Made by a program: the position numbers and the translations under genes. A stretch of DNA of 6,048 nt from a virus (Duplodnaviria > Heunggongvirae > Uroviricota > Caudoviricetes): positions 1 to 6,048 of the IMG/VR virus record IMGVR_UViG_2667527717_000014. One strand, 5' to 3'. Below, one piece after another: positions 1 through 6,048 of this stretch (position 1 is the stretch's first letter; every line of letters begins with the position of its first letter). The notes under the pieces were generated by a model. The model saw nothing but the letters and a program-made list of their open reading frames with translations, was not told the DNA's origin and ran no database searches.

Positions 1-245
1 ACCACCGCCTGCCGCTTCTTCGATCCGCGCCTNNCNNCGNNNANCANNAAGCGAGCATTAGGATGTTCACTGAGCCACATATACTTATTCCTGCAAAAGA
101 AAGTATCGCGTGTGTCATACTTCATGGCAAATCCAAAACCGACTTTTATGATGGATAACGTATGTATACTAAATGCAACATATGAAATGCAGCCAATAAG
201 AAATAATGGGACGAAAACTGACATTAAATAGTTATTATCATCATC
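1..245 (-). CDS. Hypothetical hydrophobic protein, 3'-partial (runs off window start; crosses ambiguous bases 33-50)
   Basis: ATG at 245..243 (minus), same frame as the upstream 291..881 ORF, with no in-frame stop down to position 1 by manual codon check. Translation MIDNNYLMSVFVPLFLIGCISYVAFSIHTLSIIKVGFGFAMKYDTRDTFFCRNKYMWLSEHPNARF... contains a transmembrane-like segment. No convincing SD; may be the tail of a disrupted larger gene. Confidence 0.35.
33..50. other. Run of ambiguous base calls (N interspersed with called bases)
   Basis: Sequence reads nncnncgnnnancannaa; it coincides with a switch from GC-rich (1-32) to AT-rich composition. Interspersed called bases point to low-quality sequence rather than a sized scaffold gap. 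Confidence 0.9.
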
Positions 246-290
246 AGTTGGCGTTACTTTCCTTTTCTTTACTTTTGAGGGCATCAATAT

Positions 291-881
291 TAAACAAATA
301 ATGCAAACAAGGTAAATGATGCAATACAATATAAAAATAAAAAGTAATGCTACAACTGCCGTCATGAGTTTATTGAATGTAGCATCAAATGGAATGTCAA
401 ACAAATTGGAAATTAGCGAGCGTGCAATATAATATGAAATTAATGATACAATTACCCACACATATTTAATTCCCAGGTTAATTTTTATGGCTATGTTTTT
501 TTCTTCATTATCGAACGATTTTATGTGAGATGATATTGTGTATGTAATACACAATATCGTCACAAAAGCCAATGTATATGGAATGATGGTATTTATATAA
601 CCAATAACGTTAAAGGAAACAATTGTTAATAAAAACAGAAATACCGACAACAGTGCGGCATCTTGCGTTTTTTTATAATTTTTTCGAAGGCGAACGGCCT
701 GTTGACTGGATGACTTTTTATTCCAATTATTTTGTACGATTAATCCGCTGAGAATAATCATACCAAACCAAATAAGAATGGGGTATACAGGATCACTCTG
801 AGGTATGATGACGAGCACTGCCATAAAAAACAATAAACTGTGAACAATCCCGAGGTGTAAGGAAGAGTATATACTTTTCAT
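291..881 (-). CDS. Polytopic inner-membrane protein of unknown function (196 aa), AT-rich cargo gene
   Basis: Manual translation: ATG at 881..879, stop TAA at 293..291, upstream in-frame stop at 911..909, and no stops across 196 codons in AT-rich DNA where stops are frequent. Protein MKSIYSSLHLGIVHSLLFFMAVLVIIPQSDPVYPILIWFGMIILSGLIVQNNWNKK...LMTAVVALLFIFILYCIIYLVCIFV has about 5-6 hydrophobic helix-length segments with basic loops. Weak SD (AAGG, 7 nt upstream). Not in the supplied ORF track. Confidence 0.6.
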
Positions 882-992
882 CGATGACCTTTTTAATAAT
901 GGGTTATTCTATTGGAATTAGAAAAACCACCAGCAGGCCATTACTGTCAAGCCCGGACGCTGTCTGTTTTATCCGTAGCACACGTACATAAA

Positions 993-1018
993 CGCGCCAT
1001 CCGAACCACGATGGCGCG
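993..1018 (-). terminator. Candidate rho-independent terminator closing the minus-strand prophage operon
   Basis: Perfect 9-bp GC-rich inverted repeat cgcgccatc (993-1001) / gatggcgcg (1010-1018) with an 8-nt loop, starting 10 nt after the stop of the 1029..1199 ORF. On the minus-strand RNA it is followed by UUUAUGU. Confidence 0.5.
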
Positions 1019-1028
1019 ACAGTACATC

Positions 1029-1199
1029 TTACAGTTGGTCAGACTTTCCTTCAGGGCGTATCAGCTCGTCCCGTGATTCAGGCGTTATTACAATCTGATG
1101 ACTCAGCAATGGCACGACCACGAACTCACCAGAACTGAGTACGTATACAAGATATCTGCCAGGAACTTTCAACATTCTCAACAGTTCATCTGTATTCAT
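1029..1199 (-). CDS. Small hypothetical protein (56 aa)
   Basis: Internal ATG at 1199..1197 of track ORF 1029..1262, preceded by GGAG 8 nt upstream. The TTG-initiated N-terminal extension in the track is less likely. Translation MNTDELLRMLKVPGRYLVYVLSSGEFVVVPLLSHQIVITPESRDELIRPEGKSDQL. Confidence 0.45.
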   Translation of the reverse strand: MNTDELLRMLKVPGRYLVYVLSSGEFVVVPLLSHQIVITPESRDELIRPEGKSDQL

Positions 1200-1325
1200 A
1201 TTTTTGCTCCGTTGGTTAACAGATTCCCTTTCGGGAGCATTCCCTTTCATCCCTGTGCACAATCTTTTTAAAACAGTGCCGGTACGCGCATACAGGTTTG
1301 TTAGAATGTCTGTTAATAGAGCAAA

Positions 1326-1532
1326 TCAGATATCACTCTCCCCAAGGCTCCTGCATTCAAAGTTCTCCAGTTTCACATGTTCACCGGCAGTACGGCCCGC
1401 CTCTTTAGGCTTATAAAAACGCATTTCGCACTGTTTCTGGGTCAGTCTGGTTTCGGAGTAAAATGACCAGGCCACAGGCGGATTGCCTGCTTTATGGATA
1501 GTTGCTGTAATTTTGTATTTTTTCCCTTTCAT
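1326..1532 (-). CDS. Small basic hypothetical protein (68 aa)
   Basis: Track ORF with ATG at 1532..1530, co-oriented with the flanking prophage genes. Lys-rich N-terminus (MKGKKYKI...); no strong SD. Confidence 0.35.
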   Translation of the reverse strand: MKGKKYKITATIHKAGNPPVAWSFYSETRLTQKQCEMRFYKPKEAGRTAGEHVKLENFECRSLGESDI

Positions 1533-1607
1533 ACTTACTGCCGAAAAATGTGTTGATTATTTACACAGATTCGTATCACAAGCAGCCAGGAGTATCCAAG
1601 CAGGATA

Positions 1608-1634
1608 TGAAGGTAACCCAGTATGTTACCTTCA
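1608..1634 (-). other. Perfect 10-bp inverted repeat (hairpin) just downstream of the 1648..2388 gene
   Basis: tgaaggtaac (1608-1617) / gttaccttca (1625-1634) with a 7-nt loop, 14 nt past the stop at 1648-1650. No clean U-tract follows on the minus-strand RNA. Confidence 0.4.
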
Positions 1635-1647
1635 CTGTCTGATATCA

Positions 1648-2388
1648 TCATTCGGTACTAAGCCCCTGCCACAACGCCCTGTTACCAGGTTTATGCACTT
1701 GCCGGGAAATCTCACGGCACTTTTTCAGACGTTTCAGTTTTGCTTCCGTCCTGCGAATTTCAGCGCTGATCGCCCGTGGTGTAGGGATGACAACGTCGTC
1801 GTGCCGCCGTTCTGTGAATGACGGTATCGACTGAATAAGGTCTGCAACGTTATCTGTTGAGGCTTCAGCAGCAGTTACTGATGCCGCTAACTTTATTGCT
1901 TCAGGTTGCGGCGCAGGATTATCGTCGCGCCCCATGGCTGAACAGGCTTTCTGTTTCTCCGGTAAACCATCATCAGGCAGACTGTAACGAAACTTGCCAT
2001 CATGATTAATCCGCAAAAGACGCCCCTTTCCCGTAGCCATCGCCAGCGTGGAGGCAACCTTCCTGGCTGTTGTGCTGAAGCGCCTGGACAGTTCATCCGC
2101 CGTCTGTGGGCCGTGTTTTCGGATAGCGTCTGTCAGCTGCTTCTCATCGATTTTCATAACCGTTTCCACTGGTGTTACAGGGTTCACTATTTTTTCTTTG
2201 GCAACGTCAGTCAGTTCCTTTTCCGGTCCGGACAGAGACCAGTAGCCGTTCAGGAATATCACCCTGCCTGAGTCTTCCTGCTCACGCAGCATTTCCAGAA
2301 CATCTTTTGTCTCGATGAGCAGGCGTGCTGCGACCTCGCGAGCAGTGGCTTTTCCCATCGCTTTCAGTGCATCAGTCACTGTTTCCAT
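1648..2388 (-). CDS. Prophage hypothetical protein (246 aa) with internally duplicated, winged-helix-like N-terminal repeats
   Basis: Start moved to the internal ATG at 2388..2386, preceded by AGGAGA 8 nt upstream and lying 23 nt after the DnaC-like stop (2412-2414). The track's ATG at 2463 would overlap the DnaC-like gene by 52 nt. Two similar ~50-aa segments: TVTDALKAMGKATAREVAARL...GRVIFLNGYWSLS and QLTDAIRKHGPQTADELSRRF...GRLLRINHDGKFRYSL. Confidence 0.7.
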   Translation of the reverse strand: METVTDALKAMGKATAREVAARLLIETKDVLEMLREQEDSGRVIFLNGYWSLSGPEKELTDVAKEKIVNPVTPVETVMKIDEKQLTDAIRKHGPQTADELSRRFSTTARKVASTLAMATGKGRLLRINHDGKFRYSLPDDGLPEKQKACSAMGRDDNPAPQPEAIKLAASVTAAEASTDNVADLIQSIPSFTERRHDDVVIPTPRAISAEIRRTEAKLKRLKKCREISRQVHKPGNRALWQGLSTE

Positions 2389-2411
2389 TGACAATTTCTC
2401 CTGTGATTCAG

Positions 2412-3152
2412 TCAGGGCCGGTTGACGTTTTTTCGCCAGCTTTCCCAGCCAAAATTTACCCATCGGCCACCGTTCATGGACATTCTGTCCATCACCCGCT
2501 GACCTGCCAGCTTAGTCAGTGCATCATGGTTCAGGTTGGTCAGCATTCCGACGCTGCGCAGGGATGCGGTCCGGCGATCAACAATCTGGTGCAGGATGAC
2601 CTGCTCGTTGCGTGTCTCACGCTGCACACCAACCTCATCAAGGATCAGCAGGTCCACTCCGCACAGCTCCTTCAAAAATTTTTCACCCGAATTTCCATCA
2701 TCGTACCCGGCATGAAGCGCACTCATCACGTCGGCGACGGTGATAACAATCACACTGCGTCCGGCGTTCATCAGGCGGTTACCTATGGCGGCGGCCAGAT
2801 GATTTTTGCCGGTACCAGGCTTACCGCTGAACACAAAATTTGTACAACCGGTATCCAGTTCAGCAGCTATGGATTTGGCCTGGCTGAGCGCATGCTTCTG
2901 GCCGTCATTCTGCACCCGGTAATTCTTGAACGAGCATCTGCGATGCAGTGGCTGAATACCGGCCCGACCGAAGATTTTTTCGGCCCTGGTCTGGCGGTTA
3001 AGTCGGTCAATTTCCTCGCAGCGTCTGCGCCCTTCGGCTAGCTGCCATTCCCGCCACTCCCCCGGCGTCCGGAACGGTGCGGAACTGTTGGCCGACCGTG
3101 GCGCCAGTTTCCTGATGCGGGCCAGAATCCCGGTATCTGCGATGTTTCTCAT
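2412..3152 (-). CDS. dnaC: DnaC-like replicative helicase loader (AAA+ ATPase, DnaC/IstB family)
   Basis: Walker A FSGKPGTGKNHLAAAIG and Walker B DLLILDEVG. Block-wise similarity to E. coli DnaC as recalled from memory (CSFxNYRV, IITVADxMSA, QIVDRR, GMLTNxN, GxRVMDRM). ATG at 3152 with GGGGTGA SD 6 nt upstream; 6-nt gap from the upstream initiator gene. Confidence 0.92.
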   Translation of the reverse strand: MRNIADTGILARIRKLAPRSANSSAPFRTPGEWREWQLAEGRRRCEEIDRLNRQTRAEKIFGRAGIQPLHRRCSFKNYRVQNDGQKHALSQAKSIAAELDTGCTNFVFSGKPGTGKNHLAAAIGNRLMNAGRSVIVITVADVMSALHAGYDDGNSGEKFLKELCGVDLLILDEVGVQRETRNEQVILHQIVDRRTASLRSVGMLTNLNHDALTKLAGQRVMDRMSMNGGRWVNFGWESWRKNVNRP

Positions 3153-3158
3153 GGCTTG

Positions 3159-4076
3159 TCACCCCCTGAAACCCGGTGGAATGGTTGTGTCCGGTGGCGA
3201 AATATCCTGAATCCTGGTCGGGCTGTCGCGGCCACGATTGCCTCCCCGGTCCTGGTCTTTTGCCAGCCAGCCGGTGATAAATTTCCTGATGCCTCGGGCG
3301 GTTTTTCGTCGTCGTCGTTCGCTGAGCAGCCATCCGCGCTGATTACGCAGTGCCTGCCGGACGTCGACCGCCGGATACAGCGTCTCAAACTCGACAACCA
3401 TCGATTCGGTCACGGAAAATTCAGAACCGTCGTTGAGCGGAAGCCGAATAAACTCAGGGTCATCAGGCGGTGTTGATGGCACACCAGCGCTCAGAGGCCG
3501 ACGCTCAGGTCCGACATGGGCTGGTCCGGTACCATCGGGCAAACTCGCACCCTGTGACCCGAAATTTTCATCCAGTTGCGTGGGGCTGATTTTTTCAGCT
3601 CCGCGCAAGAGGTTTTGATCTTTTAGATCTGTTTCTTTATCTTTATCTGGATCTTTATTAGTTGCCTTTGTGTTGGGCTCCTGTTCAAACACAGAACCAA
3701 CACCTGTTGAACATGTGTTATTTTCGCTGGCAGATTGTGCTTCCTTCCTGTTCCTTCTTGACTGAACAGATGCTTTTCCTGCTGCAGACTTTTTCGCTAA
3801 GGTTTCCCTGACCGAATGAAGATCATCTTCAATACGCTTGTGAACCCACTCCGTGCCGTTATCAGTAAAAAATTCTCTCAACGACTCTTCTACGGCTCCC
3901 CAACGCTCACTGCTAACCCGGGCAATCTTTGCCAGCCTGTTTTTCGGTATAGCCCTTCCGGTCTGCCAGTAATTGAACATCAGCAGTAAATAGGCCCCAT
4001 GCTCCTCGGTTGAAAGATGCATTGTGTCAGCCAAGTAATCAGCGATATAAAGCTGCATGTATGGAAGTGCCGCCAT
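3159..4076 (-). CDS. Phage replication initiation/organizer protein, DUF1376 (YdaU-like) N-terminal domain
   Basis: N-terminus MAALPYMQLYIADYLADTMHLSTEEHGAYLLLMFNYW matches the conserved DUF1376 motif as recalled from memory. Low-complexity acidic/basic linker (KDPDKDKETDLKD). Sits immediately upstream of the DnaC-like gene. GAGG SD 4 nt upstream of ATG 4076. Confidence 0.85.
   Translation of the reverse strand: MAALPYMQLYIADYLADTMHLSTEEHGAYLLLMFNYWQTGRAIPKNRLAKIARVSSERWGAVEESLREFFTDNGTEWVHKRIEDDLHSVRETLAKKSAAGKASVQSRRNRKEAQSASENNTCSTGVGSVFEQEPNTKATNKDPDKDKETDLKDQNLLRGAEKISPTQLDENFGSQGASLPDGTGPAHVGPERRPLSAGVPSTPPDDPEFIRLPLNDGSEFSVTESMVVEFETLYPAVDVRQALRNQRGWLLSERRRRKTARGIRKFITGWLAKDQDRGGNRGRDSPTRIQDISPPDTTIPPGFRG
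3610..3720. other. Candidate phage replication origin embedded in the initiator gene linker region
   Basis: Three GATC sites within 37 bp (3617-3620, 3626-3629, 3650-3653). AT-rich tract with CTTTAT repeats (3635-3640, 3641-3646, 3653-3658). Two palindromic TGTT-N-AACA motifs (3682-3691, 3706-3714). This corresponds to the inter-domain linker of the encoded protein, as for lambda ori within O. Confidence 0.3.
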
Positions 4077-4126
4077 AACGCCTCGCTACGCTCTTTTCCG
4101 TTCGGTCTGAATACAAAAATTAATAC

Positions 4127-4143
4127 TCACTGGTCATGTCTCT
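4127..4143. repeat. 17-bp exact direct repeat, copy 1 (tcactggtcatgtctct)
   Basis: Identical 17-mer at 4127-4143 and 4716-4732, in the same orientation, bracketing a ~590-bp segment. Confidence 0.9.
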
Positions 4144-4154
4144 CTGTTTGGTGC

Positions 4155-4214
4155 CGAACCTCCTGCTGGTGCTAGCCTGCTGATTCCCCAACCAACAGAA
4201 CCACAGGAGGTTCG
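4155..4214 (+). promoter_or_regulatory. 5' leader stem-loop sequestering the Shine-Dalgarno of the 4217..4429 gene
   Basis: cgaacctcctg (4155-4165) is the exact reverse complement of caggaggttcg (4204-4214), which contains AGGAGG (4205-4210) and ends 2 nt before ATG 4217. 11-bp perfect stem, 38-nt loop. Confidence 0.45.
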
Positions 4215-4216
4215 AC

Positions 4217-4429
4217 ATGTCAGATACAAAACTTAAAAATGGATTAACGCCTGAACAAATGGCACACGATATCGCTATGGTGCTCATCGGGAACCCATCC
4301 CATGAATGGCTTTCGGATAATGCGACCAAAACTCGTAGCACTGAATTAGCAATGAGCGCTGTAGCAGAAGAAGTCATGAACATGGAAAAACATCTTGCTG
4401 CAGCTCTTCATCAGTACACGGAGAACTAA
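4217..4429 (+). CDS. Small acidic hypothetical protein (70 aa), opposite-strand gene inserted in the early operon
   Basis: ATG 4217 with AGGAGG 6 nt upstream, stop TAA 4427-4429, followed by an intrinsic terminator. Translation MSDTKLKNGLTPEQMAHDIAMVLIGNPSHEWLSDNATKTRSTELAMSAVAEEVMNMEKHLAAALHQYTEN. Preferred over the antisense track ORF 4120..4383, which has no SD. Confidence 0.6.
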   Translation: MSDTKLKNGLTPEQMAHDIAMVLIGNPSHEWLSDNATKTRSTELAMSAVAEEVMNMEKHLAAALHQYTEN

Positions 4430-4438
4430 TCCGCATCA

Positions 4439-4465
4439 AAGGTCGCTGAGTTCGCGACCTTTTTT
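4439..4465 (+). terminator. Rho-independent terminator between convergent genes
   Basis: Stem ggtcgc (4441-4446) / gcgacc (4454-4459), extendable by flanking A/T pairs, 7-nt loop, followed by TTTTTT (4460-4465). The stop codon of the minus-strand 4465..4686 gene abuts the T-tract. Confidence 0.75.
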
Positions 4466-4686
4466 CAGTCCACTCCAGTAGGCATCCCCAACCATTTTTT
4501 TATATCGCTATAACTCAGCGTTATGGGCTGATTTTTGCCGGACTCTTCAACCGGTATGGTATGTTCCTCTTCAAATTTCTTTTCGAAGGTACGCATGTGC
4601 TCACGCCAGGCATTTCGATCTTCGATCGCTTCTTCCCTCCGGTTCAGTCTGGCGTAATACCGTTCCTGCTCAGTCAACGTTTTCAT
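4465..4686 (-). CDS. Small hypothetical protein (73 aa) downstream of the YdaT-like gene
   Basis: Internal ATG at 4686..4684 with AGGAG 6 nt upstream, preferred over the track's GTG at 4719. Translation MKTLTEQERYYARLNRREEAIEDRNAWREHMRTFEKKFEEEHTIPVEESGKNQPITLSYSDIKKWLGMPTGVD; charged and helical-looking. Confidence 0.6.
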   Translation of the reverse strand: MKTLTEQERYYARLNRREEAIEDRNAWREHMRTFEKKFEEEHTIPVEESGKNQPITLSYSDIKKWLGMPTGVD

Positions 4687-4702
4687 TACTTCTCCTGCAT
4701 GG

Positions 4703-5206
4703 TTACAACAGATGGTCACTGGTCATGTCTCTGATACTGCTGGCGGTAACTGCTTCGTAGCGTCTGTATTGCTTGTATGGCTTCATCACACTCCCGTTCA
4801 AAATCCGTAACAGGCGCACCAAGAAGTACCGCATTTGCCACTGCGGTTTTTTTAAAAACTGTGTAAGCAGATACTCGATGCTATGCCCTGCCGTGACCTG
4901 CTTATGCAGCTCCGGCGCGTGTATCCGGATTGCTTCAAGAACTGCGGGGATTAGCGCTGAAAACTTTTCGCGGTGCTCTGTCGTTTCGAGTTTTCGCCAT
5001 CGCTGAAAAATGTTTATACGATTCCGGCGCCATGCTTCGTAATCCACCGTTCCGTCATCACGTTCTATACGGTGGACAGCAATATCTGGTCTCACTTGCT
5101 GTTCCAGAAAGGCGCGGGTGATCAACTGTGTTGCACTTTCCTGACTCATTGCGGGTGTAGCCAGCCAGGATGACAGTGCTTTGTTGGCATCCTCAGGGGT
5201 GATCAT
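4703..5206 (-). CDS. ydaT: YdaT-like protein (functional analogue of CII in YdaS/YdaT-type prophages)
   Basis: Core segment NIFQRWRKLETTEHREKFSALIPAVLEAI resembles the conserved YdaT core as recalled from memory for E. coli Rac. ATG 5206 with AGGTGA SD 6 nt upstream; 14-nt overlap with the upstream Cro-like gene. Confidence 0.8.
   Translation of the reverse strand: MITPEDANKALSSWLATPAMSQESATQLITRAFLEQQVRPDIAVHRIERDDGTVDYEAWRRNRINIFQRWRKLETTEHREKFSALIPAVLEAIRIHAPELHKQVTAGHSIEYLLTQFLKKPQWQMRYFLVRLLRILNGSVMKPYKQYRRYEAVTASSIRDMTSDHLL
4716..4732. repeat. 17-bp exact direct repeat, copy 2 (tcactggtcatgtctct)
   Basis: Identical to 4127-4143. On the minus strand it encodes the RDMTSD C-terminus of the YdaT-like protein; the copy at 4127-4143 encodes RDMTSE in an otherwise non-coding or antisense context. 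Confidence 0.9.
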
Positions 5207-5468
5207 CGTTGTTCACCTCTCTCGCATCCTTTAGTGGTAGATTTTGATGGCTAGGCAAAGCATCCGTTGGATTAGGGTAAAGAACTGAGTCGAGCTGATG
5301 CGGTGTAACTGCATACCCTACGGCCTCACAAAAAGGAATAATTCGTCGCGGTGGGAATTTTCCTGTTGTAACCCATAGACTTACGTTTTGCTGACTAGTT
5401 TTAAGACGTCGGGCGATCTCGGTCTGATTAGTGATGCCGAATAGTCGGCTCCTGGTTTTAAATTCCAT
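5193..5468 (-). CDS. ydaS: Cro/YdaS-like HTH DNA-binding protein (first gene of the early operon)
   Basis: ATG at 5468..5466 with GGAGG 4 nt upstream; the track's GTG 5486 extension is rejected. HTH-like segment QTEIARRLKTSQQNVSLWV. Divergent from the repressor gene across the operator region, with the YdaT-like gene immediately downstream. Confidence 0.75.
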   Translation of the reverse strand: MEFKTRSRLFGITNQTEIARRLKTSQQNVSLWVTTGKFPPRRIIPFCEAVGYAVTPHQLDSVLYPNPTDALPSHQNLPLKDAREVNNDDHP

Positions 5469-5570
5469 ATATCCTCCAAATGTCACACTTGTATAAATAC
5501 AGCATGAACTTGTATTTTACAAATTTAAATTTGTGTGACGCTAACAAAATTTACTTGTAAAATATGAGGT
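5469..5570. promoter_or_regulatory. Divergent promoter/operator region between the repressor and Cro-like genes
   Basis: Perfect 16-bp palindrome ACAAATTTAAATTTGT (5519-5534). TTGTA-TTT-TACAA (5510-5522) and TTGTA-TAAA-TACAg (5489-5502) sites. ACTTGTA recurs three times (5487-5493, 5508-5514, 5553-5559). Candidate minus-strand promoter: -35 TTGTAA (5522-5517), -10 TATTTA (5499-5494). Candidate plus-strand -10 TAAAAT (5558-5563), only ~8 nt before ATG 5571. Confidence 0.6.
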
Positions 5571-6041
5571 ATGAAAAAAAACAACGAATCAGCTCAATAC
5601 GAGACTTCAGCCAGAAGGATCAAACAGGTCCTGTATGAATTAGGCTGGAACCAAAGTCGCCTGGCTAAAGAAATTGGGGTTTCAGCTCAGGCGGTACAAC
5701 AATGGGCAAAAGGTACTTCTCGACCGAATGGCCCTAATCTAACTCGACTTTCTGAAGTCACAAGCAAACCTGAAGCATGGTTTTTCAGTGATGTCAGCGG
5801 GTTATCTGAGAGTCATGCAGTACATTTACCAGAAAGTAATGGTTCAGACTTTCTCCCGCTTAGCGATGAAGAGATCAGACTGCTAACTGTCTTCAGGAAA
5901 TTTCCTTCTGTAGAGAGTAAAAACATGCTGTTAGCGTTTGAGATGAGACTTCNGCGCCGCTTCAGTTCACTCTTCAGGGCGGGGGTGAAATGGCTGGTAA
6001 TAAATGACGGACACAGACGGAAACCACGTCGTAGCCAGTGA
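5571..6041 (+). CDS. CI/RacR-like prophage repressor (XRE-family HTH, no obvious S24 peptidase domain)
   Basis: HTH segment QSRLAKEIGVSAQAVQQWAKGTSRP; 156 aa; divergent from the Cro-like gene. One ambiguous base at 5953 gives X in the C-terminal region, so the C-terminus may be affected by sequence quality. Confidence 0.8.
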   Translation: MKKNNESAQYETSARRIKQVLYELGWNQSRLAKEIGVSAQAVQQWAKGTSRPNGPNLTRLSEVTSKPEAWFFSDVSGLSESHAVHLPESNGSDFLPLSDEEIRLLTVFRKFPSVESKNMLLAFEMRLXRRFSSLFRAGVKWLVINDGHRRKPRRSQ

Positions 6042-6048
6042 AATAAAC

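Follow-up and report, generated by a model that had tools for sequence, protein, structure and literature searches.

A protein-coding cassette with a conserved 72-nucleotide head in the oop position of a Rac-like prophage

The 6,048-nucleotide (nt) stretch of viral DNA analysed here (IMG/VR record IMGVR_UViG_2667527717_000014, positions 1 to 6,048; hereafter the window) corresponds to the early region of a lambdoid prophage of the Rac-like kind, whose early operon lies on the minus strand. Between the CII analogue and the replication initiator, a short unit runs on the plus strand against that operon. It consists of a conserved 72-nt head, an open reading frame (ORF) for a protein of 70 amino acids (aa), here called ORF70, and an intrinsic terminator, and it meets a converging minus-strand gene, ORF73 (Table 1). 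The placement and direction of the unit had been proposed in a first-pass annotation made without database searches, and both the ORF map and the family scans agree with it.

The same annotation had called the unit protein-coding, with an acidic 70-aa reading frame, and this reading frame was confirmed. All frames other than that of ORF70 are interrupted by stops. Intact homologues occur at two further loci, L130 and L132 (loci are cited by handles of this form), and the family has a common N-terminal motif, KLKNGLTPxxMAHDIAMVLIG. Over the whole length, the window copy and that of L130 differ at a proportion of 0.72 of synonymous sites (pS) and 0.35 of nonsynonymous sites (pN). Over the first 26 codons the corresponding values are 0.63 and 0.05, which gives a ratio of nonsynonymous to synonymous substitution (dN/dS) of 0.04. 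Against L130 and L132 the ratio for the window copy ranges from 0.04 to 0.26, about 0.2 overall, and it is 0.21 between the two homologues themselves. Judged by this pattern of substitutions, ORF70 is under purifying selection in homologous prophages, and the unit is a real protein gene rather than an oop-like small RNA.

The predicted product is acidic and hydrophilic (grand average of hydropathy, GRAVY, -0.44). Its AlphaFold2 model consists of two helices, residues 12-23 and 30-69, at a predicted local distance difference test (pLDDT) score of 77.7. The gene has a G+C fraction of 0.43 versus 0.50-0.52 in the neighbouring genes, and its family is rare, with three clusters among 5.8 billion proteins and two more among 1.8 billion representatives. 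Residues 13-66 weakly match the C-terminal end of the 339-position PADLOC profile PDC-M18A (E 4.9e-4, 17.6 bits). This candidate defence match covers a helical stretch and is probably noise from helical composition; it was given no weight.

Downstream of ORF70, the unit ends at a real intrinsic terminator of its own, as a moron would. The first-pass description of a strong terminator abutting the stop codon of a minus-strand gene holds to the base: the structure folds with -13.1 kcal/mol (z = -3.65), and the ORF73 stop codon (4465-4467) begins with its final T. All three ORF70-family loci (window, L130 and L132) carry a terminator, each its own copy, and the stem differs by compensatory changes, GGTCGC/GCGACC in the window versus GGCCGC/GCGGCC in the homologous loci. 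A simple consensus scan of the window did not list this terminator because the stem extension of the scan consumed the T-run. The predicted transcript thus ends at 4465, short of the end of the CII-like gene (4703 or 4716), and therefore has no antisense overlap with any early coding sequence. ORF73, which converges on ORF70 from the same insertion, encodes a hydrophilic protein of 73 aa without a Pfam or PHROG match. In L130 and L132, too, a small gene (88-93 aa) with weak similarity to ORF73 (E 0.02) converges on the ORF70 homologue, and ORF70 and its converging partner may form a two-gene module.

A comparison with related prophages places the whole unit on inserted DNA. Most of the loci retrieved for relatives of the replication protein in the window are without such a unit. 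At seven loci (L137, L138, L140, L141, L143, L147 and L154), the CII-like gene ends in ...QRHDQ* and the O-like ATG follows ~50 nt on. These empty-site relatives, whose replication gene is 84-88% identical to that of the window, have a certain 17-nt sequence once; in the window it stands twice as an exact direct repeat, corresponding to the last five codons and the stop of the CII-like gene. With L137, L138, L140 and L147, blastn aligns the window in two parts, 5219-4716 and 4143-2345, and the relative has a single 17-nt stretch that matches both 4716-4732 and 4127-4143. From the split matches and the doubled 17-mer it follows that the window holds a 572-bp insertion together with a 17-bp duplication. 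On this comparison, the ORF70 unit sits on a discrete insertion that is missing from the closest relatives.

The inserted DNA has a G+C fraction of 0.47 versus 0.52 and 0.505 in the flanking genes, and no terminal inverted repeats of 11 nt or longer flank it. The duplication could be a target duplication, or it could stem from unequal or secondary recombination. A covariance model of the leader found the element in 7 of 80 related loci, and it is therefore accessory and not a core component of the switch.

The head of the insertion has a distribution of its own. It first came to notice in blastn, where window positions 4149-4221 are 82% identical to deposited phage DNA and the ORFs downstream differ. 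Pattern searches gave 127 loci with 39 distinct head variants. By blastn, the head is present in 577 (window query) to 635 (query with the major variant) of 5426 complete E. coli genomes, about 12%, with up to four copies per genome. Carriers include the O157 Sakai prophage Sp4, where the cargo is ECs1072 (ECs_5703), and EDL933, and the head also occurs in Salmonella (L002, L132). At least 11 cargo ORF families, distinct by BLASTP, start at the ATG of the head, among them the ECs1072 family (NF033230), a BssS-family protein (PF13991), two PHROGs of unknown function and several orphans. Both loci with ORF70 homologues, L130 and L132, have a leader of this kind, and within the ORF70 family two head subtypes occur. 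At eleven loci no ORF begins at the start codon of the head, nine of them having ATA in place of ATG and two having other changes; in the nine ATA copies, the head abuts the stop of a ydaT-like gene.

The early genes around the head vary as well. The next gene downstream of it in the early operon encodes a DUF1376 replication protein at 77 loci and is Rha-like at 23; upstream, 61 loci have a YdaT-like gene and the remainder a Cro-like or other gene. The sequence to the left of TGGTG differs among loci. Full-text literature searches turned up no description of the head element, and a scan of the window against Rfam (E <= 1) gave nothing on the ORF70 unit and two chance matches elsewhere. The head is thus a conserved, widely spread, dual-strand element for which we found no earlier description.

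Several individual loci deserve comment. The sole match to the head in the phage database is L001 (PP818812.1, 'Actinobacillus phage vB_Apl-pPE4'), whose gene content is Rac-like. Since a 1660-bp stretch of it (replication gene plus cassette) is 99.6% identical to E. coli prophages, we rejected a range extending to the Pasteurellaceae; the host label needs caution, and our claims stay within the enterobacteria. Two matches in the genome collection, L003 and L004, were discarded as chance matches to a 21-nt pattern. In L006 and L049, the gene directly left of the TGGTG end is a 112-aa ORF that by eye resembles transposases of insertion sequence (IS) families, and in L006 the base ahead of GGTG departs from the otherwise near-invariant T.

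Both strands of the head carry signals. The arms of an inverted repeat (4152-4165 and 4204-4217, 14 nt each, 93% complementary) enclose most of it. An alignment of 37 variants (A1) shows no variation at TGGTG, at the T, A and final T of a TAnnnT hexamer, or at AGGAGGTTCGACATG. The TAnnnT follows a TTGGTG-like hexamer at a distance of 17-19 bp in all variants (for example TATAAT, TATCCT or TATTCT, and TAGCCT in the window). The variants in which only the 19-bp spacing is available all carry TGn just upstream, that is, an extended -10 element. We read these invariant positions as a predicted sigma-70 promoter on the plus strand. It would be confined to 4144-4216, because the insertion starts at 4144 and the flanks to the left of TGGTG vary among loci. 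The position of the -10 element puts the predicted transcription start near 4183, ~280 nt from the terminator. An mRNA from ~4183 lacks the 5' arm of the repeat and folds weakly (-7.7 kcal/mol, z = 0.15), so its Shine-Dalgarno (SD) sequence would be accessible.

On the minus strand, the same DNA folds within the early-operon transcript into a 66-nt hairpin. In the window this hairpin (4217-4152) reaches -43.6 kcal/mol (z = -5.9) and makes up 44% of the ensemble. The SD and AUG of the cargo have their complement in its 5' arm, and the predicted 5' end of the cargo mRNA has its complement in the apical loop. Usually, ~7-47 nt separate the end of the hairpin from the start codon of the next early gene. 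When both strands of the 39 variants were folded, the minus strand was more stable in 38 (means -32.5 versus -25.1 kcal/mol; window copy -41.0 versus -26.8 kcal/mol). Dinucleotide shuffles attribute ~2.8 of the 7.4 kcal/mol strand difference to composition, with mean z scores of -5.2 for the minus strand and -3.65 for the plus strand.

Pairing statistics point at the same strand. In the 16-pair lower stem of 36 distinct variants, standard pairs occupy 97.7% of cells on the minus strand versus 81.5% on the plus strand, and G·U cells number 96 versus 3. These 96, out of ~109 non-Watson-Crick cells, read C·A on the plus strand, so that departures from Watson-Crick pairing appear to be tolerated almost always on the minus strand only. 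In the upper stem, the sequence shifts between variant families and pairing is kept: pair 3 is G-C in 20 variants and T-A in 14, and pair 4 is T-A in 20, A-T in 4 and C·A in 6. Overall, 118 of 156 upper-stem cells are paired versus 92.8 ± 4.5 with partners shuffled, a value reached in none of 5000 shuffles, although such tests overstate significance for related variants. The upper-stem cells were counted in an anchored manner, as RNAalifold on MAFFT alignments failed to align the variable upper stem. Taken as a whole, these comparisons suggest that a structure in the early transcript, on the strand opposite to ORF70, accounts better for the hairpin.

Four other identities for the hairpin or its parts were tried and rejected. 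The YdaT operator is TTGATTN6AATCAA (PMC9986795), which the loop sequence TGATTCCCCAATCA loosely resembles; the spacing does not fit, the copy in the window is not exact, and pairing persists through sequence changes. The CTGT...ACAG of the upper stem has a 13-nt spacing instead of the 8 nt of a LexA box. The M3 RNA of phi80 lies on the other strand, is a homologue of oop and has no sequence resemblance to the minus-strand hairpin. HnrS, a multicopy prophage small RNA (sRNA) of enterohaemorrhagic E. coli (EHEC), belongs to the late region and is unrelated.

We consider it rather likely that the ORF70 unit is a self-contained accessory cassette of the moron type, and that its head doubles as the source of an antisense hairpin within the lytic transcript. 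The cassette would have come within the 572-bp insertion between the CII-like and O-like replication genes. The plus strand of its head would supply a sigma-70 promoter (TTGGTG, 19 bp, TGcTAGCCT), a short open leader from ~4183 and a strong SD with ATG. The product would be an mRNA of ~280 nt for an acidic, helical 70-aa protein, ending at 4438-4465 ahead of any early gene. In the repressed prophage, the cassette would be expressed from this promoter, independently of the early promoter. Such behavior would be in line with the finding that accessory prophage loci are typically those expressed in lysogens (PMC7067206), and a microarray study of growth transition in O157 Sakai, without prophage induction, listed ECs1072 among the differentially expressed genes (PMC2241611). 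Once the early operon is read through the head, its transcript would form the very stable 66-nt hairpin directly upstream of the next early gene. The onset of lytic transcription would then shut off the cargo by promoter occlusion combined with antisense pairing, and the hairpin might also serve as a processing or stabilising site for the replication-gene message. The first-pass annotation had envisaged that convergent transcription interferes with early readthrough into the replication genes, which is possible.

A bolder version treats the head as the two-strand switch of a whole cassette system in Rac-like prophages. One strand would hold a portable promoter and ribosome binding site, active in lysogeny for any small gene joined to it. 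The other would yield an antisense RNA of ~66-70 nt, cut by RNase III or RNase P, that silences the cargo and sets the 5' end of the replication message, and the head would be the site of cargo exchange. We regard this extension as speculative and improbable.

Several observations weigh against the moron-type reading. The promoter elements of the window copy are weak in both the -10 (TAGCCT) and the -35 (TTGGTG) and are separated by 19 bp, and the consensus scan did not call this promoter because the -35 hexamer fits at only 3 of 6 positions. The supplements on EHEC transcription start sites and sRNAs gave no transcript ends for any copy of the head, those of Sakai and EDL933 included. The invariant TA...T falls in the internal loop of the minus-strand hairpin and could be an RNA motif rather than a -10 element. 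As regards the hairpin, the invariance of the lower stem is partly a matter of ascertainment, since one search pattern required it; covariation there is slight, with one pair changed on both sides; and the relatedness of the variants weakens the shuffle tests. No conserved promoter dedicated to the antisense hairpin was found, the sequence to the right of the ATG being cargo that differs among families. As regards the protein, ORF70 has no match in Pfam, NCBIfam or PHROG, and Foldseek with its model against the PDB gave nothing at E < 1.

Among the alternatives, the one that survives best has the element act chiefly within the early transcript. The hairpin would be a processing or stabilising structure for RNase III, or for RNase P at the 3' ACCA, that sets the 5' end and the stability of the replication or Rha message, and cargo genes would merely exploit it as an entry point. 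The hairpin is indeed always on the early-operon strand, close to the start of the DUF1376 or Rha-like genes counted above, and the strand asymmetry favours the minus-strand fold. Its lower stem of 17 bp, asymmetric internal loop and upper stem have the layout of T7 RNase III sites, the invariant CACCA after the stem contains an ACCA that recalls RNase P model substrates, and copies without cargo exist. Against this stand most close relatives, which express the same replication genes without the element, and the SD-ATG of the other strand, which is conserved to the base with the cargo always in register. We find this explanation unlikely, but worth keeping in view.

A second alternative follows the likeness to lambda OOP that the first-pass annotation had drawn, with the unit as an RNA regulator. 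The promoter would fire against the early operon, collision or antisense pairing would reduce the output of the CII-like and replication genes, and the reading frame would be of secondary importance. The unit shares place and orientation with lambda oop, phi80 M3 and OOP-BTP1 (PMC7067206). In the nine ATA loci, moreover, transcription from the promoter would run in antisense direction through the end of the ydaT-like (CII-analogue) gene, and the no-cargo copies come nearest to an oop-like arrangement in this family. Yet no terminator is evident in those copies, and in the window the transcript stops at 4465 before reaching any early coding sequence. The reading frame is clearly under purifying selection (dN/dS ~0.2), no resemblance to M3 is seen on inspection, and the Rfam scan gave no match. 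Most related prophages lack the element, which speaks against a core part of the switch. The kinship with OOP as an RNA regulator did not hold up, and we judge a primarily regulatory RNA to be a doubtful proposition.

A third alternative concerns the SD of ORF70, described in the first-pass annotation as strong but sequestered. If the plus-strand mRNA started upstream of 4152, the hairpin would hide its own SD, and ORF70 would be silent in translation until processing, temperature or a trans-acting RNA opened the structure. The AGGAGG and the inverted repeat do exist, the latter conserved everywhere, and a transcript from 4148 pairs the SD (-27.7 kcal/mol, z = -2.45). The lower-stem departures, on the other hand, disrupt pairing on the plus strand and keep it on the minus strand. 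The sequence upstream of TGGTG is unconserved and, beyond the insertion, belongs to the ancestral spacer; a consensus promoter scan found no promoter-like site upstream of the head; and the invariant TAnnnT lies inside the hairpin. The strength of the SD thus stands, only a transcript begun upstream of 4152 would hide it, and in the mRNA of ORF70 itself it is probably free. We consider such self-sequestration quite improbable. Least probable of all is that the element acts as DNA, as a homology patch for module recombination or a protein-bound operator or cruciform: mosaic junctions lie at both of its edges, cargo and right-hand genes change together and left-hand genes independently, and one cargo family occurs with two head subtypes, but exchange driven by homology has no need of a hairpin, a G·U strand bias or compensatory upper-stem changes, the element has no linked recombinase, and the insertion has no terminal inverted repeats of at least 11 nt.

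Table 1. Features of the ORF70 cassette and of its surroundings in the window
Feature	Position	Strand	Details
Head element	4148-4219	+	Conserved 72 nt; predicted promoter, leader, SD and ATG
-35-like hexamer TTGGTG	4148-4153	+	G3, G4, T5 and G6 invariant, T2 nearly so
Extended -10, TGcTAGCCT	4170-4178	+	T, A and final T of TAnnnT invariant
Predicted transcription start	4182-4185	+	From the -10 position; 5' untranslated region ~33 nt
Shine-Dalgarno AGGAGG	4205-4210	+	Invariant; 6 nt ahead of ATG
Hairpin in early-operon transcript	4152-4217	-	66 nt; then ACCA
ORF70	4217-4429	+	ATG 4217, TAA 4427-4429; 70 aa, isoelectric point (pI) 5.1
Intrinsic terminator	4438-4465	+	Stem 4438-4446 / 4454-4462, T-run 4460-4465
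Insertion	4144-4715		572 bp; head element, ORF70, terminator and ORF73
Direct repeat copy 1, TCACTGGTCATGTCTCT	4127-4143		Just left of the insertion; minus strand ...ERHDQ*
Direct repeat copy 2	4716-4732		True 3' end of the CII-like gene (QRHDQ*), ancestral frame
ORF73	4465-4686	-	ORF list; SD GGAG ahead of ATG 4686; same insertion as ORF70
CII-like gene	5206-4703	-	phrog_163, E 5e-28
Cro/YdaS-like gene	5468-5193	-	ORF map and family scans
cI-like helix-turn-helix (HTH) gene	5571-6041	+	ORF map and family scans
DUF1376 'primosomal'/O-like gene	4076-3159	-	ORF map and family scans
DnaC-like gene	3152-2412	-	ORF map and family scans
DUF1627 gene	2463-1648	-	ORF map and family scans

The remainder of the window shows a few irregularities. 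The CII-like gene (4703-5206, minus strand) is frameshifted relative to an intact homologue of 165 aa in L045. In tblastn, residues 3-121 align in frame -3 and residues 121-165 in frame -2, which puts the shift near 4847-4860, in a TTTTTAAAAAAA run, and the ancestral stop at 4716-4718. This frameshift could be an assembly error or the mark of a pseudogene. The cI-like ORF contains an HTH domain only, and the family scans found no S24 peptidase domain in it. Positions 33-50, 5953 and 5950-6048 stand out by runs of N and a single N. The C-terminal part of the cI-like protein after the N at 5953 looks unrelated, which suggests that the gene is truncated or that an assembly junction lies there. 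Three copies of an ACTTGTA(T/A)AA-type motif, likely operators, occur in the divergent promoter region (5469-5570) that separates the cro-like gene from the cI-like one. At the other end, positions 60-880 are AT-rich, and the ORF listing, from which ORFs at the window edge were excluded, shows only short ORFs there (31-42 aa).

If the moron-type reading of the ORF70 unit is correct, about one in eight complete E. coli genomes, O157:H7 Sakai and EDL933 included, carry prophage cassettes built on a single portable head. This head would express small, mostly uncharacterised proteins from a silent prophage and would switch them off at lytic growth; proteins so expressed would include the ECs1072 family, BssS-like proteins and the ORF70 family. 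The head would then offer a simple sequence handle for accessory genes expressed in lysogeny, and a compact natural case of a DNA segment that encodes a structured RNA on the strand opposite its promoter. Different lambdoid phages would make different use of the 'oop slot' that separates cII from the replication genes. As an inserted accessory gene, the ORF70 unit would itself be nothing out of the ordinary; what is unusual is its regulatory head.

Known systems offer partial parallels to this arrangement, and two classes could be set aside. A type I toxin-antitoxin pair of the hok/sok kind was rejected, as ORF70 is acidic and hydrophilic with two predicted soluble helices and is no small hydrophobic toxin. 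An integron cassette was rejected as well: there is no GTTRRRY core of attC, a site holds a single cassette, and no integrase is adjacent in the annotated loci. The hairpins of the T7 R1.1 type, cleaved by RNase III, are closer to the head in being intercistronic, in the order of lower stem, asymmetric internal loop and upper stem, and in lying just ahead of the next ribosome binding site. They have no sequence relation to the head, however, and in the head the DNA doubles as a predicted promoter for the other strand.

The antisense side of the proposal has its nearest counterpart in IS10. There, RNA-OUT is a stable hairpin of ~66-70 nt whose loop matches the 5' end of the target mRNA, RNA-IN, and one side of whose stem covers the SD and AUG. 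The head hairpin fits this geometry if the cargo transcript starts near 4183, as predicted. Unlike RNA-OUT, which has its own promoter and no sequence relation to the head, the hairpin would be part of a long early transcript or be cut from it. In the pR/pL pair of coliphage 186, a weak promoter in the lysogenic direction faces a strong lytic operon, as here, and by this likeness occlusion or collision at the head promoter is plausible. The 186 promoters lie 62 bp apart and control the switch, whereas here the distance is ~1.3 kb and the weak predicted promoter would drive an accessory gene.

The comparison with OOP and with morons bears most directly on what the unit is. Lambda OOP (pO), phi80 M3 and OOP-BTP1 lie, like the ORF70 unit, between the CII analogue and the replication initiator, and the lambda type likewise runs against the early rightward operon and ends in an intrinsic terminator adjoining the upstream gene; OOP-BTP1 matches in both position and orientation (PMC7067206). 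In phi80 (L133, NC_021190.1, 36229-36288), the annotated non-coding RNA 'M3 RNA, homolog of lambda oop RNA' sits between the cII-like and O-like genes, in the same slot and orientation as ORF70 and with unrelated sequence. OOP-type RNAs, however, are 60-77 nt long, non-coding and overlap the 3' end of cII, whereas the ORF70 unit is coding, with a predicted transcript of ~280 nt, overlaps no early gene and is an optional insertion. Morons such as bor and lom of lambda or those of HK97 are extra genes with their own promoter and terminator, placed between genes that are adjacent in relatives. The ORF70 cassette resembles them in being an insertion relative to close relatives, in its own terminator, in its predicted promoter and in its somewhat lower G+C. 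It differs in that many unrelated cargos share one 72-nt head with a hairpin on the other strand, and in that the site lies inside the early operon, in antisense direction. With these differences taken into account, the ORF70 unit fits the definition of a moron better than that of oop.

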